From positions 32,001-96,000 of the forward strand of contig NZ_JAQNDL010000002.1 in NCBI RefSeq assembly GCF_028368995.1: 64,000 nt of DNA, read 5' to 3'. The notes under the pieces were generated by a model, which had not been told where the DNA came from, did not search any database, and saw only the letters and a list, made by a program, of their open reading frames with translations. Made by a program: the position numbers and the translations under genes. Shown here piece after piece: positions 4,425 through 56,947 of the stretch. Source of the stretch: Nannocystis bainbridge (GTDB lineage Bacteria > Myxococcota_A > Polyangia > Nannocystales > Nannocystaceae). Numbering within the stretch: position 1 is the stretch's first letter; the number at the start of each line of letters is the position of its first letter.

Positions 4425-6359
4425 ATGCGCGCGATCAGCAGGCTCTCTCTCGTCACTCTATGGGCCGGATCGATGGGGGCCTGTGCCGGGGGAGAGGGCT
4501 CGGAGAGCCGCGGAGGGACTGCCACCGAGACGACCGTCGGCGCGATGACGGCCACCGAGGCGACCGCCGGCACGGCCACCGACGCCCCGACCGGCACCGA
4601 CTCTGCCAGCGGCGCCAGCGAGGGCAGCGGGACCGACTCGGCGACGGTGGGCACGACCGCGACGCCGCCGACGACCACCGATCCGACCACCACCGATGGC
4701 GTCACGACCGACGCGGTCACCTCCACCGACACCGCCTCGACCACCGGTGAGCCGTGCGAACCGGTGCAGTGCTCGCCCGACCTCAAGGGGCTCGAGTGCG
4801 ACGGGCAGATCGTGTCGACCTGCGAGGACGACTCGTACTGCGTCGACGGCGTGTGCACGCCGCTGGCGCCGTGCGAGGCGGCCGCGCTGCTGCAGGGCAG
4901 CGAGGGCTGCGAGTTCTGGGCCGTGAAGACGCAGACCACCAAATCCGGCGGGTGCTTCGCGGCGTTCGTCGCCAACACCTGGGACGAGCCGGTCCACATC
5001 GAGGTCGAGTACGACGGCCAGAGCCTCGACGTCGCCGGCTTCACGCGGATCCCCCAGGGCCAGGGCGAGGGCATCAGCTATGCCCCGTACGATCCGGGGG
5101 CCGGGCTGCCGGTCGGGCAGGTCGCGCTGGTGTTCCTGTCCCGAGGGACAGGTGACAACCCCGACTGCCCGGCCCCCGCGGGCGTGGCGGCCGAGACCGA
5201 GGTGGTCGGGACCGGGCGCGGCAAGGGGTTCCGCATCACCACCGATCGGCCGGTCGCCGCCTATCAGATGCTGCCGTACGGCGGCGGCTCGGTGGCGATC
5301 ACCTCGGCGACGTTGATGCTGCCGACCAGCGTGTGGGACACCAACTACGTGGTCGTCAACGCCTACGCGCAGAGCGTCGCGGTGCCCGCGGCGCGGCCGC
5401 TGTGGGCCATCGTCGCTGGCGAGGACGGCACCGAGGTGACGCTCGATCCGAAGGTCGCCGTCGTCGGCGGCCCCGACGTGGCCGCCGGCGCGGCCGGGGT
5501 GCCGATTCAGTACACCCTCGATCGCGGCGAGACGATCCAGTTCGCGCAGTCGGCCGAGCTGACCGGCTCGCCGCTGGTCGCCAACAAGCCGGTCGGCGTG
5601 TTCGGCGGGGCCAGCTGCTTCAACGTGCCGGTGGGGGCCTCGTACTGCGACGGCGCGCACCAGCAGATCCCGCCGATCAAGGCGCTGGGCAGCGCCTACG
5701 TGGCGGTGCGTTACAAGAACCGGCTGGCGATGGGCGTCGAGGAGACGCCGCCGTGGCGGCTGGTCGGCACGGTCGACGGGACCATGTTGACGTGGGAGCC
5801 GGGCAAGCCGGCCGGCGCGCCCGACACCTTGTCTTTGGGACAGGTCGCCGAATTCGCCGCGGCGGGGCCGTTCACGGTCCGCAGCCAGGACAGCGAGCAC
5901 CCGTTCTATTTCGCCGGCTACATGACCGGCGGGCAGCTCCACGACAACCGCGGCGACCCCGAATGGGTCAACGTGATCCCGTCGGAGCAGTACCTCGATC
6001 GCTACGTGTTCTTCACCGACCCGACCTACTCCGAGACCAGCCTGGTGGTCGTGCGGCGCAAGCAGGACGGCGCCTACGCCGACGTCACGCTCGGCTGCGC
6101 CGGCGTGCTGGACGGCTGGGCGGCGGTCGACGACGAGCACGAGTACACCCGCGTCGACCTGGTGACCGGCAACTTCGAGGACGTCGGCGGGTGCTCGAAC
6201 GGCCGCCACGAGATCTCGAGCGCCAACCCGATCGGCGTGACGGTGTGGGGCTGGGGCTCGCCGGAGTCGGTCGATTTCTACACGCTGAACGTGTCGTACG
6301 CGTACCCGGCAGGGGCGGCGATCCGGCCGATCAACGACGTGACGATCATGCCGCAGTGA
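4425..6359 (+). CDS. Lipoprotein with Thr-rich linker and IgGFc-binding-protein N-terminal-like domain
   Basis: Lipobox-like SMGAC; motifs GCEFWAV, SATLMLPTSVWDTNY, HQQIPP, GDP and SYAYPAG. Confidence 0.75.
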   Translation: MRAISRLSLVTLWAGSMGACAGGEGSESRGGTATETTVGAMTATEATAGTATDAPTGTDSASGASEGSGTDSATVGTTATPPTTTDPTTTDGVTTDAVTSTDTASTTGEPCEPVQCSPDLKGLECDGQIVSTCEDDSYCVDGVCTPLAPCEAAALLQGSEGCEFWAVKTQTTKSGGCFAAFVANTWDEPVHIEVEYDGQSLDVAGFTRIPQGQGEGISYAPYDPGAGLPVGQVALVFLSRGTGDNPDCPAPAGVAAETEVVGTGRGKGFRITTDRPVAAYQMLPYGGGSVAITSATLMLPTSVWDTNYVVVNAYAQSVAVPAARPLWAIVAGEDGTEVTLDPKVAVVGGPDVAAGAAGVPIQYTLDRGETIQFAQSAELTGSPLVANKPVGVFGGASCFNVPVGASYCDGAHQQIPPIKALGSAYVAVRYKNRLAMGVEETPPWRLVGTVDGTMLTWEPGKPAGAPDTLSLGQVAEFAAAGPFTVRSQDSEHPFYFAGYMTGGQLHDNRGDPEWVNVIPSEQYLDRYVFFTDPTYSETSLVVVRRKQDGAYADVTLGCAGVLDGWAAVDDEHEYTRVDLVTGNFEDVGGCSNGRHEISSANPIGVTVWGWGSPESVDFYTLNVSYAYPAGAAIRPINDVTIMPQ

Positions 6360-6436
6360 GCCGCGGGCTCGCGACCTGATGCGCGCGGCCGCGACGAGCG
6401 AGCCGCGCGCGCCGGTTGTCGCGGCGGCGCGGAGAA

Positions 6437-6817
6437 TCAGTTGAGGAGGCGGCCCGGCGGGCGCGGCGGTCGAGGTCGGCCGCGCGAGCGATCGAGCCGG
6501 CCGCGGTCGTAGAGGGCCATGCGGTAGAGGTGCCCGCGCTCGCAGAAGAAGGTGATCGTGCAATAGCCGTCGCCGTGGATCGAGGTCGGCAGATCGATCC
6601 ACGACACGTGAATCGGCTGCGCGTCGAGCTCGGCCAGGCGGTCGCGCACCAGCGGCAGGCCCTCTGCCAGCGCGTCGAGGTCGTGCCAGACGCCGGGTTC
6701 GGCGGCGAACAGGCGGGTCAGGAGCGGCTCGTGGCGCCGCTCGCTGACCAGATCGGCCGCCAGGTCTTCGAGCAGCAGCTCGGCGTCGACGGGTTCGTCG
6801 GGGTCGTGGTCCGTCAA
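6437..6817 (-). CDS. Small hypothetical protein
   Basis: High-GC3 frame (DEPVDAELLLEDLAADL...WIDLPTSIHGDGYCTITFFCERG); TTG start inferred. Confidence 0.5.
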   Translation of the reverse strand: MTDHDPDEPVDAELLLEDLAADLVSERRHEPLLTRLFAAEPGVWHDLDALAEGLPLVRDRLAELDAQPIHVSWIDLPTSIHGDGYCTITFFCERGHLYRMALYDRGRLDRSRGRPRPPRPPGRLLN

Positions 6818-7513
6818 TGGAAGCTCAGGGGGCGACCGGCGCGGCCGGTCGCGAGGTCGGGGAGCGGGGCAACGTTCGGGGTGCTGACAATCGTGCGGAG
6901 CTCGCATTGGTGGCGGACGAACTCTCGCAGGAGGGGCCCGGGACGCCGGTCTTCGAGGTTGCCATCGGCCGCCGCCGGGGGCTCGTGCGCGGCCCGGCAG
7001 CCGCGTCCTTGCACCTGCATGCGTCGGCGAAACAGCCGTCGAGACCGCCGAGATCGCACCGCTCGCGGCGGCTCGCACCGGAACCGTTTTTCGTCCTATC
7101 GGAGGTCGAAGCGGGCGGCGTCGGGCCGTGATCGTCGACCGTCGCCGTCGCCGACGTGGGGTCCGTGGTCGTGGTCGCGGTCCGGCCCGATCGGCAGGGG
7201 GCCTTCGCGGGTGCCATCCGATCGTCGCTGCAAGCCGACGCGGGCGGGGGCCCGCGCCGGGGCGTGGCGGTCAAACGGCGTGCTCCGGTCATTGCGTTCG
7301 AGATCTTCGGCAGGACCGGGGCCCGCTTCAAGGCATGCGCGTCGGCGCTCGACCTGTCTCGGGCGAAAGCCGCGGCGGGCGAATGGGTGTGCACCGTTTC
7401 GCACACCGTGCGGAGCATGACGGCAGTGGCAGTCCTGTGCCGCGATTGGGGGGACGCTTTTGTTCGCAGAGGTCCCTGGTTGCCGAGGGGAGCTCGAGGG
7501 TATGTTCCCGCGC

Positions 7514-55658: not shown

Positions 55659-55853
55659 AGCTTTGCAGGCTTGCAAGGCGGACCCAACGAGGCCGCGGCA
55701 GCCGGGCCGAGAGATATCACGAGGGCCGGCGCGGCTCTACCGTTTCCTCGCCGGAGTCGGCAAATCTCGGCGCGCGGAGCCCGGCCGCGGGCGTGTGAGC
55801 TTGAGCGGCCCCGCTGTCGCACGACCTCGCCTCGGCCGAGGCTAGCCTCGGCC

Positions 55854-56342
55854 ATGGCCGAGCCCCTGACCCACTTCGACCCCTCCGGGGCGGCGCGCAT
55901 GGTCGCCGTGACCGACAAGCCGGAGACGGCGCGCGCCGCGGTGGCGGAGGCCCGCGTGCGCATGGCCCCGGCGACGCTCGAGCGGATCCGCGAGGGCCAG
56001 ATCGGCAAGGGCGACGTGCTCTCCGTGGCCCGCCTGGCCGCGATCGGGGGCGCGAAGCAGACGCCGCAGATGATCCCGCTGTGCCACCCGGTGCGGCTGA
56101 CCGGGATCGACGTCGACTTCGTGCTCGAGCCCGACCTCCCGGGCGTGCGCGTCACGGTCCGCGTCAGCGCGGTCGACCGCACCGGCCCCGAGATGGAAGC
56201 GATGACCGCGGCGGCCGCGGCGGCGCTGACGATCTACGACATGTGCAAGGCGATCGACCGCGGGATGGTGATCGCGTCGGTGTACCTGGTCGAAAAGTCA
56301 GGCGGGAAGTCGGGCGTGTGGACCCGCGGAGGTGGAGCGTGA
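55854..56342 (+). CDS. moaC: Cyclic pyranopterin monophosphate synthase MoaC
   Basis: LTHFD..G.ARMV, KGDVL, IPLCHP, TGPEMEAM, TIYDMCKAIDR and KSGGKSG. Confidence 0.95.
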   Translation: MAEPLTHFDPSGAARMVAVTDKPETARAAVAEARVRMAPATLERIREGQIGKGDVLSVARLAAIGGAKQTPQMIPLCHPVRLTGIDVDFVLEPDLPGVRVTVRVSAVDRTGPEMEAMTAAAAAALTIYDMCKAIDRGMVIASVYLVEKSGGKSGVWTRGGGA

Positions 56343-56947
56343 ACGAGCCGCGGGTCGAGGGCTTTCGCGGCGGGGCGACCGAGCTGCGCGGGCTGCTCGG
56401 GCGGGCCTTCTGCGACAACCCCGGGATGGTCGCGACGCTCGGCGACGCGCGGCCGCGACGGCTGGCGCGCGCGACCCGATTGATGGGCGGCATGACCGGC
56501 ACGGCGCTGGCGAGCGGGACGGTCGAGGTGGTCCGCGCGGGCGGCCGGGTGGCGGCGACGAGCCTGTCTTATGGGCCAGATCAGAAGCCGAGCGGGCGGG
56601 CGCTGGTGCCGATGTACCTGGCGGGTCTCTCGACGGGGCCGCGCTGCCTGATCCGGCTGCTGCGCCTCGACGAGTTCCTGCGCACGCATCACCCGCGGGT
56701 GCCGCACTTCTTCCTCGCGGTGCTCGGGGTCGAGCCGGAGATGCAGGGCCGTCAGCTCGGCTCGGCGCTGCTGCGGGCGCTGTCGGCCCGCGCCGACGCG
56801 GCCGGGCTGCCGTGTTACCTCGAGACCGACCGCGAGCCGGCCAAGCGGCTGTACATGCGCCACGGCTACGAGGTGGTCGGCGAGCACGAGCTCGAGAACC
56901 TCGGCGGGGTGCGGTTCTGGCGGATGCAGCGACCGCCGGCGCGGTAG
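56339..56947 (+). CDS. GNAT-family N-acetyltransferase
   Basis: RAFCDNP, HFFLAVLGVEPEMQGRQLGSALL, CYLET and LYMRHGY. Confidence 0.85.
   Translation: MNEPRVEGFRGGATELRGLLGRAFCDNPGMVATLGDARPRRLARATRLMGGMTGTALASGTVEVVRAGGRVAATSLSYGPDQKPSGRALVPMYLAGLSTGPRCLIRLLRLDEFLRTHHPRVPHFFLAVLGVEPEMQGRQLGSALLRALSARADAAGLPCYLETDREPAKRLYMRHGYEVVGEHELENLGGVRFWRMQRPPAR

Follow-up and report, generated by a model that had tools for sequence, protein, structure and literature searches.

A Nannocystis-specific, iterated 20-bp palindrome arrayed in a 14-bp register and concentrated at gene ends

The uptake sequences of Neisseria and the Pasteurellaceae (DNA uptake sequence, DUS, and uptake signal sequence, USS) are lineage-specific, occur about once per kb, lie inside genes in several reading frames and form inverted pairs at gene ends; the known ones are single asymmetric words that are enriched alone. 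Fur boxes, the metboxes of MetJ and the heptad arrays of the omega repressor consist of abutting units in fixed register with alternating symmetry centres, and are found in promoters at a few to some tens of loci. The cyanobacterial palindrome HIP1 (GCGATCGC) is over-represented 15- to 300-fold, and a chromosome or nucleoid role has been proposed for it (PMC5861425, in its accessible part). Repetitive extragenic palindromes (REPs) occur mainly downstream of unidirectional or convergent open reading frames (ORFs), are often clustered, sometimes supply a stop codon and are sometimes intragenic, according to the accessible part of a REP survey (PMC3733652). CdbA of Myxococcus xanthus is a sequence-specific nucleoid-associated protein with little effect on transcription; its chromatin immunoprecipitation gave 569 peaks, 35% of them intergenic, and its motif model matches 8,917 sequences (accessible part of PMC7156744). 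Here we describe a 20-bp palindrome, AC[A/C]TGTCC-N4-GGACA[T/G]GT, that recurs through the genome of Nannocystis bainbridge (11.05 Mb, five contigs, 71.5% GC) and was first noticed in a stretch of 64,000 nucleotides, the window (contig NZ_JAQNDL010000002.1, positions 32,001 to 96,000; G000:C3:32001-96000).

The palindrome is best read as belonging to the genome-wide iterated palindromes, where it resembles REP and HIP1 and is a member of neither. Like HIP1, it is a hyper-abundant palindrome that lies within genes as well as between them, in numbers far beyond what codon usage predicts; the sites of each are conserved at orthologous positions, and neither carries signs of a peptide or RNA role (for HIP1, in the accessible part of PMC5861425). 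Unlike HIP1, it is bipartite, with 16 specified positions around a free 4-bp spacer; its enriched unit is a dyad plus a 14-bp lattice rather than an octamer (81% of the copies of the 8-mer GACATGTC abut a dyad partner on one or both sides); and its density in convergent intergenic DNA is 16 times that in coding sequence (CDS), it is phased to stop codons and it is restricted to one myxobacterial genus. HIP1 has been linked to orphan methyltransferases; a D12-class methyltransferase is present here, occurs in 25 of the 31 genomes compared and does not track the motif. With REPs, their mosaic clusters (bacterial interspersed mosaic elements, BIMEs) and their mobile doublets (REPINs), the motif shares short palindromes in hundreds to thousands of copies, clustering, the occasional supply of a stop codon, some copies inside genes and, by our crude gene calls, a location mainly downstream of genes. 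Its ranking of intergenic densities (convergent above tandem above divergent) fits REPs, yet 39% of its sites fall in crude CDS calls. It is further set apart from REPs and their REP-associated tyrosine transposases (RAYTs) in that no RAYT was found in its genome, it has no GTAG/CGTC head, its two-fold symmetry is perfect, spacers and flanks are not copied but particular to each site, there is no G-T bias, and the sites are made by substitution. The likeness to DUS and USS lies in lineage specificity, a density of about one per kb, in-gene copies in several frames and a peptide imprint; unlike theirs, single half-sites of the motif stand at shuffle level, 77-79% of half-sites are partnered, and the 14-bp lattice has no known DUS or USS counterpart. 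Oligomerising-repressor operators offer the precedent for arrays of two to six short abutting units, implying cooperative binding, but the motif has thousands of sites, and most of these are inside genes or at gene ends. CdbA offers a precedent within the phylum for hundreds of moderately specific sites in and between genes; its motif is instead a direct repeat separated by 4 bp, and the accessible part of PMC7156744 reports no link to gene ends. Our literature search, which covered neither supplements nor subscription papers, found no description of the motif; a term search of the N. exedens genome announcement gave no mention of it, and "Myxococc" and "Sorangium" do not occur in the accessible part of the REP survey (PMC3733652).

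The palindrome, its abundance and its lattice

For one window gene the closest named records are Nannocystis species, at a protein identity of 89-91%. The motif logo shows the half-site AC[A/C]TGTCC on both sides of a loosely constrained, AT-enriched 4-bp spacer; beyond the 20 bp nothing is conserved except echoes at 14 bp. The exact 14-bp core, TGTC-N6-GACA (that is, TGTCC-N4-GGACA, with six bases between the core tetramers), occurs 27 times in the window, against a mean of 0.93 and a largest value of 4 in 100 dinucleotide shuffles. Genome-wide there are 3,663 such cores at spacing 6, with 29-136 at every other spacing from 0 to 12. Sites were scored against the 16 specified consensus positions, and those matching at least 13 form our main set: 8,885 in the genome at N4, as against 47-258 at N1-N3 and N5-N7, with 47 of them in the window. 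A genome scan at 12 or more matches gives an excess of about 11,850 sites, roughly one per kb. No 8-mer is more over-represented than GACATGTC, whose 2,237 copies amount to 64 times the median for its composition. At position -1 the A is replaced by C in 37% of sites, so that CATG is missing there.

The enriched unit is the dyad together with the 14-bp lattice. Among 3,947 half-sites of the form ACATGTCC, 79% have a partner across N4 with at most two mismatches, vs 1.3% at a shifted control. Within CDSs partnered half-sites number 1,391 vs 111-125 in synonymous shuffles, and lone half-sites stand at about shuffle level (404 vs 290-325). The lattice is visible in the distances between CATG words, of which 3,736 fall at 14 bp, 2,073 at 28, 1,586 at 42, 751 at 56 and 383 at 70, over a background of about 80-300 at other distances. 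Runs of CATG at exact 14-bp steps comprise 1,265 of two units and 328, 213, 159, 75 and 22 of three to seven units; the same genome count at spacings of 12, 13, 15 and 16 bp found almost none. A neighbour at plus or minus 14 bp is present for 44% of the 8,885 sites, and the register extends to pairs of sites that share no bases (1,116 at 28 bp and 730 at 42 bp, background median 21). Since ACATGT is itself palindromic, adjoining sites can share it, and arrays thereby run in a 14-bp register; their consensus is uniform, GGACATGTCC-N4 repeated, typically for two to six units, and the lattice CATG is kept even where the remainder of a unit has decayed. With 13 sites in 600 bp, G000:C2:1217500-1217720 is the genome's densest cluster; it lies in a Ser/Thr-kinase-like ORF with 42-bp tandem repeats (14-residue, PVPADMSPVTSS-like) with one dyad per repeat, and it was this repeat that came out on top when the densest clusters were searched for a reader protein.

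Exact cores are found on all five contigs, at a mean of 33 per 100 kb and a range of 4-60. Two 100-kb bins at G000:C1:1,100,000-1,300,000 hold only four exact sites each, where GC skew is near zero; these bins may hold giant genes or foreign DNA. In the window the GC skew is positive almost throughout, up to +0.2, and on contig C3 it changes sign at about 1.5 Mb, which may mark a replication origin or terminus.

The motif belongs to a single myxobacterial genus: Nannocystis carries it densely, and sister genera almost lack it. The strict 18-bp pattern CATGTCC-N4-GGACATG, counted in 31 genomes (with densities hand-computed from rounded sizes), occurs 369 times in the genome described here and 180-266 times in five other large genomes of the genus, which gives 14-33 per Mb across these six. 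Five smaller same-genus assemblies have 2-50 copies (0.4-5.5 per Mb), two sister genera have 5 and 2 copies (0.2-0.6 per Mb), and 18 genomes from six further genera of the family and 12 other families have none; a reversed control pattern is absent from all genomes counted. In viral contigs the 20-bp pattern occurs once each in eight and several times in none, which we judge to be about chance level. One metagenome-assembled genome (MAG) of a sister genus, G011 (about 60% GC, L144-L148), has five perfect ACATGTCC-N4-GGACATGT palindromes where about 0.03 would be expected by a hand estimate. These lie in AT-rich, promoter-like DNA beside DUF4215, CAP, beta-lactamase, rhomboid, YceG and HrpB-like genes, and a search for a reader protein found no regulator among the genes neighbouring the five sites. 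They resemble the operator of a small regulon and may represent the ancestral state. In 200-kb samples of G011 and of G013 no other dyad of comparable prominence was found.

Location relative to genes, conservation and origin

Most copies lie outside genes, a point that the first-pass annotation of the window, which was made from the letters alone, had missed. Genes were called from GC content at third codon positions (GC3) and from GC1 exceeding GC2, taking the most upstream start, which gave 6,204 calls covering 74% of the genome. By these calls CDSs contain 0.42 sites per kb (3,437 sites, 39% of all those matching at least 13 of 16 positions), divergent intergenic regions 0.91, tandem regions 2.42 and convergent regions 6.63, the last density being 16 times that of CDSs and seven-fold that of divergent regions. 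At least one site is present in 63% of the 969 convergent regions, 30% of the 2,376 tandem regions and 17% of the 860 divergent regions. Within tandem regions the exact sites favour the upstream gene, 502 being closer to its stop vs 200 closer to the downstream start. A site begins within 30 bp of the stop in 1,332 of the 6,204 called genes (21.5%) and within 100 bp in 1,916 (31%), where the control, upstream of called starts, gives 392 genes (6.3%) and 11%. The offsets to the stop codon peak sharply at -1 (106 sites), -6 (80) and +8 (89). In the window, 12 of the 47 sites lie in gene calls and 35 between them, often as arrays in the 14-bp register.

The copies inside genes carry an imprint at the DNA level. 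All called genes together contain 1,451 exact cores vs 98.9 +/- 14.4 in eight synonymous-codon shuffles, a 15-fold excess; TGTCC-N4-GGACA gives 835 vs 25.5, the control spacing N7 gives 102 vs 77.9, and the window genes alone have 8 cores vs 0.60 (maximum 4 in 300 shuffles). All three reading frames are used (676, 566 and 209 sites), the rarest being the one that forces three A/T-ending codons, and across the genome GC3 falls to 0.664 (6,523 of 9,824) in the 20-bp span vs 0.927 outside it. These results bear out the view of the first-pass annotation that one dyad is favoured in unrelated genes irrespective of strand or frame and coincides with breaks in codon bias: the excess over synonymous shuffles, the three frames and the five contigs all speak for a genome-wide preference at the level of DNA. 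Its 12 quoted positions do contain the dyad, in host genes as unrelated as those for an IgGFc-binding-like protein, an M28 peptidase, LMF1, an ABC/MlaE fusion, a HipA-like kinase, a histidine kinase and PntA, and its codon strings at 5136 and, on the minus strand, near 17250 are as it quoted them. Nine of the 12 reach at least 13 of the 16 consensus positions, with 28716 at 11 and 51674 and 56563 at 12; ten lie in the GC3-based gene calls, 19495 and 56563 being outside them; and what had been taken for a 13-bp variant at 5828 is a site in the normal N4 register, starting at 5826 and scoring 13. Of the peptides said to be shared, LSRGTGD, LSPGTGD, LVQGTG and MSDGTL are in frame, and LSSGTCD and MSSGTC are not among the 16 translated sites. 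The comparison with uptake sequences and HIP1 holds for a DNA-level, genome-wide signal and has to be revised for its unit, which is the dyad plus lattice instead of a single word. The motif is chromosome-wide as proposed, and its having a role is something that we too can only infer. The earlier interpretation is supported overall, with refinements on the dyad unit, the intergenic density and the role.

Alignments with relatives show that the sites arise by point substitution rather than by insertion. Four large same-genus genomes (G010, G005, G001 and G007) are syntenic with the window over its whole length, 94% of which is covered by BLAST high-scoring segment pairs (HSPs), and every alignable window CDS site is gapless against these relatives, with its arms largely kept. 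Both dyads in the linker of the ABC/MlaE fusion protein stand at the same codons in five named Nannocystis records, with differing spacers; in other genera the alignment of this linker is gapless and the motif is missing. In PntA the conserved stretch VDLAAE[Q/R]GGNCE is encoded with GAG CAR/CGN/AGA GGN in 17 orthologues from other genera, with GAG ACA GGT in all five large same-genus genomes and with GCC GGT in the divergent same-genus MAG G008, and the right arm of the pntA site is created by a Gln/Arg-to-Thr change plus two rare codons, ACA and GGT. The peptides that the first-pass annotation took as an imprint of the DNA motif are, in the ABC/MlaE linker and in PntA, not conserved in orthologues from genomes that lack it. 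Once present, the sites are kept in their arms: among sites inside BLAST HSPs, identity to the relatives is 0.894 in arms, 0.804 in spacers and 0.812 in flanks within CDSs, and 0.784, 0.487 and 0.689 outside them (arms vs flanks, Fisher tests, p = 2e-6 in both). The sites at 22113 and 37926 have arms without a single difference in the four relatives, and spacers that all differ. The sites are not part of any larger repeat or mobile element, and their flanks are essentially unique by sequence comparison, the commonest 20-mer having 12 copies among 3,663 sites and 2,194 of 2,283 flank windows of 814 bp having no similar partner (89 resemble another). As a separate matter, intergenic lengths differ greatly between genomes of the genus: the 19.7 kb or so of the window at 4000-24000 match about 28.9 kb in G010, and many intergenic stretches are unalignable.

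The two arms vary independently. At the stem pair (4,9) Watson-Crick combinations make up 0.591 of sites vs 0.571 expected from independence, with a mutual information of 0.007 bit; pairs (5,8), (-2,15) and (-3,16) have no excess of pairing, and mutual information over these four stem pairs is 0.005-0.015 bit. Arm deviations are therefore uncompensated, which indicates that pairing is not what is selected. Neither is there a wobble bias in sites oriented by transcript (U.G 113 vs C.A 116; G.U 184 vs A.C 169). The spacer tends to begin with a pyrimidine and end with a purine, is AT-enriched and nearly strand-symmetric, avoids GCGC/GGCC-type centres, and favours the tetranucleotides TTCG/CGAA, TCCG and the GAAA type.

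What may read the palindrome

Our preferred reading, which we hold tentatively, is of a Nannocystis-specific iterated palindrome that serves as a site on duplex DNA for a dimer which polymerises in register and sets a boundary at gene ends. A two-fold symmetric (dimeric) protein would read the palindrome on double-stranded DNA, and arrays of two to six units in the 14-bp register would be bound side by side and cooperatively. Sites are made in place by point substitutions and then kept, with arms conserved and the spacer free. Bound arrays after stops or between convergent genes could then act as bidirectional boundaries (as a roadblock, an insulator or a topological barrier), a gene-end job analogous to that of REP/BIME elements, and the same pressure would place copies in genes in all three frames, over codon bias and sometimes over conserved residues. 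Independent symmetric half-sites with a constrained but unspecific spacer, set out in in-register arrays, are what a dimeric DNA-binding protein would produce, and the 14-bp register of the arrays suggests cooperative binding along the DNA.

Three candidate readers were considered and rejected. The array unit GGACATGTCC formally equals a p53 half-site; a search for a eukaryote-like p53 domain (PF00870) gave no match, a weak blank given that control genomes were equally silent. The arrangement TGTC-N8-GACA, which we take to be the geometry of MrpC/CRP-type regulators, is the rarest spacing, with 29 sites genome-wide. CdbA is set aside because its motif is a direct repeat.

Several observations weigh against this dimer-bound boundary. 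No binding protein was found, and every step that involves one is consequently inferred. The gene calls are crude, being based on GC3, and with 74% of the genome called as coding the DNA counted as non-CDS includes uncalled genes; the first gene decile holds 319 sites vs 71-174 in the other deciles (1,132 in those nine together), an inflation probably due to mis-called starts. The enrichment in convergent regions could partly reflect low constraint. A tight position after the stop is equally typical of transcribed REPs and of terminators. Adjacent pentamers in a full array are about 4-5 bp apart, which is tight for helix-turn-helix dimers. Selection on each of some 9,000-12,000 sites is demanding, and they may instead owe their persistence to a drive (biased repair, uptake or recombination). 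The conservation figures describe sites inside BLAST HSPs (in G010, 37 aligned and 41 of 78 uncovered), and the four relatives are not independent of each other. Lastly, an 8-bp hairpin can form at a site, modest covariation is seen at the outer pair (-1,14) (0.043 bit, with A-T and C-G in excess), and UNCG-type spacers in 3' regions are biased towards the sense strand (82 vs 52, p = 0.012).

A more far-reaching version of the preferred reading, possible and to our minds doubtful, is a "punctuation code", in which a dedicated protein polymerises in 14-bp register on the 9,000-12,000 or so palindromes and insulates or stops transcription in both directions. Such a code would mark the ends of about a third of the called genes and of most convergent gene pairs, would replace classical hairpin-plus-U terminators in a 71% GC genome, and would demand its sites strongly enough to rewrite codons and a conserved PntA residue.

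The hairpin observations belong to a reading that we regard as unlikely, in which the element acts in the transcript: an 8-bp stem with a 4-nt loop just past the stop would terminate transcription or protect 3' ends bidirectionally, and the in-gene copies would be spill-over. It would account for a site within 30 bp of the stop in 21.5% of the 6,204 genes and for the occupancy of 63% of convergent regions, much as REPs elsewhere are mostly downstream of unidirectional or convergent ORFs (accessible part of PMC3733652). Arrays form much stronger folds than shuffled sequences do (z = -5.3 and -3.4), the favoured spacers are of TTCG/CGAA, TCCG and GAAA type, and the mild UNCG sense bias speaks most for an RNA role, to which the covariation of the outer pair can be added. 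That canonical hairpin-plus-T terminators show no local enrichment (6 at 10000-29999 vs 3.8 +/- 2.0) counts for this reading as it does for the preferred one. Set against this, four of the five variable stem pairs have almost no covariation, and there is no excess of U.G (113 vs 116; 184 vs 169), where the REP survey argued for an RNA role from G-T pairing (PMC3733652, accessible part). Adjacent hairpins in an array would compete for the shared ACATGT, what is conserved is the arm sequence and not pairing alone, and an Rfam search of the window matched no family to the motif. The compensatory and wobble changes expected of a structured RNA or single-stranded DNA hairpin are not in evidence; nor does the site resemble an intrinsic (Rho-independent) terminator, there being no T enrichment at +17 to +53 downstream of it and a stem of 50% GC in a 71% GC genome.

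That the motif is a tag of self DNA spread by molecular drive seems to us less likely again. Uptake, recombination or repair would prefer DNA carrying the dyad, copies would build up at any place that tolerates them, and no function would be needed at any one site; such a drive has been proposed for DUS and USS and recently discussed for HIP1. The density of about one per kb, the restriction to a genus, the presence on all contigs and the CDS copies in all frames, against codon bias and a conserved residue, are as such a drive would leave them; the order of densities follows constraint (convergent above tandem above divergent above CDS); and HIP1 reportedly improves transformation (accessible part of bioRxiv 10.1101/2024.09.10.611283). 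Single half-sites, however, are not enriched (404 vs 290-325), so that a receptor would have to read the 20-bp dyad, in contrast to known uptake sequences; an uptake bias would not be expected to yield in-register arrays at 28 and 42 bp or the sharp stop-codon registers; non-coding densities differ seven-fold between convergent and divergent regions; and no competence data for Nannocystis were found in the literature searched.

It is improbable that the palindrome is a functionless by-product of sequence-biased mutation or repair, for instance of a very-short-patch-like process tied to a CATG or ACATGT methyltransferase. Such a process would fit GACATGTC as the top 8-mer (2,237 copies, 64 times the median) and the CATG kept at lattice positions in decayed units, and HIP1 has been linked to orphan methyltransferases (accessible part of PMC4390886). 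A bipartite target of 16 positions with a free spacer far exceeds known repair targets, however; 37% of sites, with C at -1, have no CATG; orphan half-sites are not enriched; and the concentration at gene ends and the stop-codon registers would be left unexplained. A D12-class methyltransferase (PF02086) was tried as the CATG methylase and rejected as uninformative: it is present in 25 of the 31 genomes, motif-free ones included, and hence does not track the motif.

A miniature mobile element, either a REP or REPIN moved by a RAYT transposase or a miniature inverted-repeat transposable element (MITE), would also be a short palindrome in thousands of copies, mostly extragenic, at 3' ends and often clustered, but it is very improbable here: no Y1 transposase (PF01797) was found in the motif's own genome (90.5% complete; the search was positive in 6 of 14 controls), there is no asymmetric GTAG/CGTC-type head (a logo aligned on the upstream gene comes out symmetric), orthologous sites recur in different species, and spacers and flanks are essentially unique. 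A MITE does not fit, since the internal 4 bp are not shared, flanks are unique and window CDS sites are gapless vs orthologues, as made by substitution.

Sites in the window and significance

The sites discussed above are collected in Table 1. The sole Rfam match in the window is a tRNA gene at 62671-62742 (+).

Table 1. Palindrome sites in the window (positions count from its first letter; scores are matches to the 16 specified consensus positions; relatives are the four large same-genus genomes)
Feature	Position	Strand	Remarks
Single dyad, exact core 4264-4277	4261..4280	.	No alignable counterpart in the four relatives
Dyad, 15/16, in IgGFc-binding-like CDS	5134..5153	.	Encodes LSRGTG via CGA, ACA, GGT; gapless in 4 relatives, exact core in 1, GGGCCA in 3
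Dyad, 13/16, in the same IgGFc-binding-like CDS	5826..5845	.	The "13-bp variant" of the first-pass annotation
Dyad, 13/16, in CDS	10233..10252	.	Encodes LVQGTG
Three sites downstream of the 9704-10339 gene	10393..10517	.	Last two 14 bp apart
Five dyads upstream of a Kef-type Na+/H+ exchanger gene (TrkA-N domain; 11670-13598, minus)	13690..14058	.	Three dyads share an identical 21-mer, including spacer TTGC, unique to this locus genome-wide; possibly a set of local operators or a local duplication
Array of CATG centres in 14-bp steps	14330..14405	.	17 bp from the stop side of a histidine-kinase gene (14422)
Exact-core dyad in histidine-kinase CDS	15342..15361	.	Gapless in 4 relatives; core in 3
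Dyad, 13/16, in M28 peptidase CDS	17245..17264	.	Codons TCT, CCA, GAT, AAT, AAA
Two strong dyads 42 bp apart, with CATG at intermediate 14-bp steps	18841..18902	.	First dyad in 3/4 relatives; second deleted in 2
Dyad, 15/16, outside GC3-based gene calls	19494..19513	.	Arms in 4/4 relatives
Dyad between two minus-strand genes	22110..22129	.	Arms in 4/4 relatives, centre different in each
Array from 16 bp past a TrkH-like stop (26630), convergent intergenic	26646..26707	.	
Three dyads in the same convergent region: 27431, exact core 27448, 27518	27431..27537	.	
Weak site, 11/16, in LMF1 CDS	28715..28734	.	From the first-pass annotation
Dyad at or before the true start of an SDR gene	29490..29509	.	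ATG of the motif may be the start codon
Dyad 43 bp past the SDR gene stop, convergent region	30386..30405	.	
Array of three overlapping 20-mers	37881..37942	.	37926: arms in 4/4 relatives, five different spacers
Two-unit lattice over the 12-bp junction of two plus-strand genes	45138..45171	.	Stop TAG in the left arm; ATG of the next gene is the ATG of ACATGTCC
Exact core 46948 and two-unit lattice directly before the ABC/MlaE gene	46945..47006	.	
Two dyads in the linker of the ABC/MlaE fusion protein	47777..47860	.	
Two overlapping dyads in CDS 48551-50326	48859..48892	.	Encode HVREDMSDGTL
Dyad, 14/16, in CDS 48551-50326	49587..49606	.	
Dyad, 14/16, in CDS 48551-50326	49902..49921	.	Encodes LSPGTGD; in 4/4 relatives
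Six overlapping 20-mers in 14-bp register, filling the convergent region 50326-50483	50391..50480	.	
Exact-core dyad (12/16) in HipA-like kinase CDS	51673..51692	.	Core in 3/4 relatives
Dyad, 14/16, inside pntA	54786..54805	.	Gln/Arg-to-Thr (ACA), GGN-to-GGT
Site, 12/16, outside GC3-based gene calls	56562..56581	.	Similar in 4/4 relatives

Hyper-abundant short palindromes, HIP1 and REP among them, are some of the longest-standing puzzles of bacterial genomes, and the Nannocystis palindrome offers a clean handle on them. Its symmetric bipartite site, independent arms, strict lattice, phasing to stop codons and graded density make a reader protein findable, and the same features make the question of RNA versus DNA testable. 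It also exhibits a DNA-level signal that overrides codon bias and a conserved enzyme residue, which matters for the modelling of coding-sequence evolution. In practical terms the motif is a marker of Nannocystis DNA in metagenomes, and a possible confounder for gene calling and for the heterologous expression of Nannocystis biosynthetic genes. The "punctuation code", if true, would amount to a boundary system that is sequence-specific, spans the genome and has no described parallel in bacteria.

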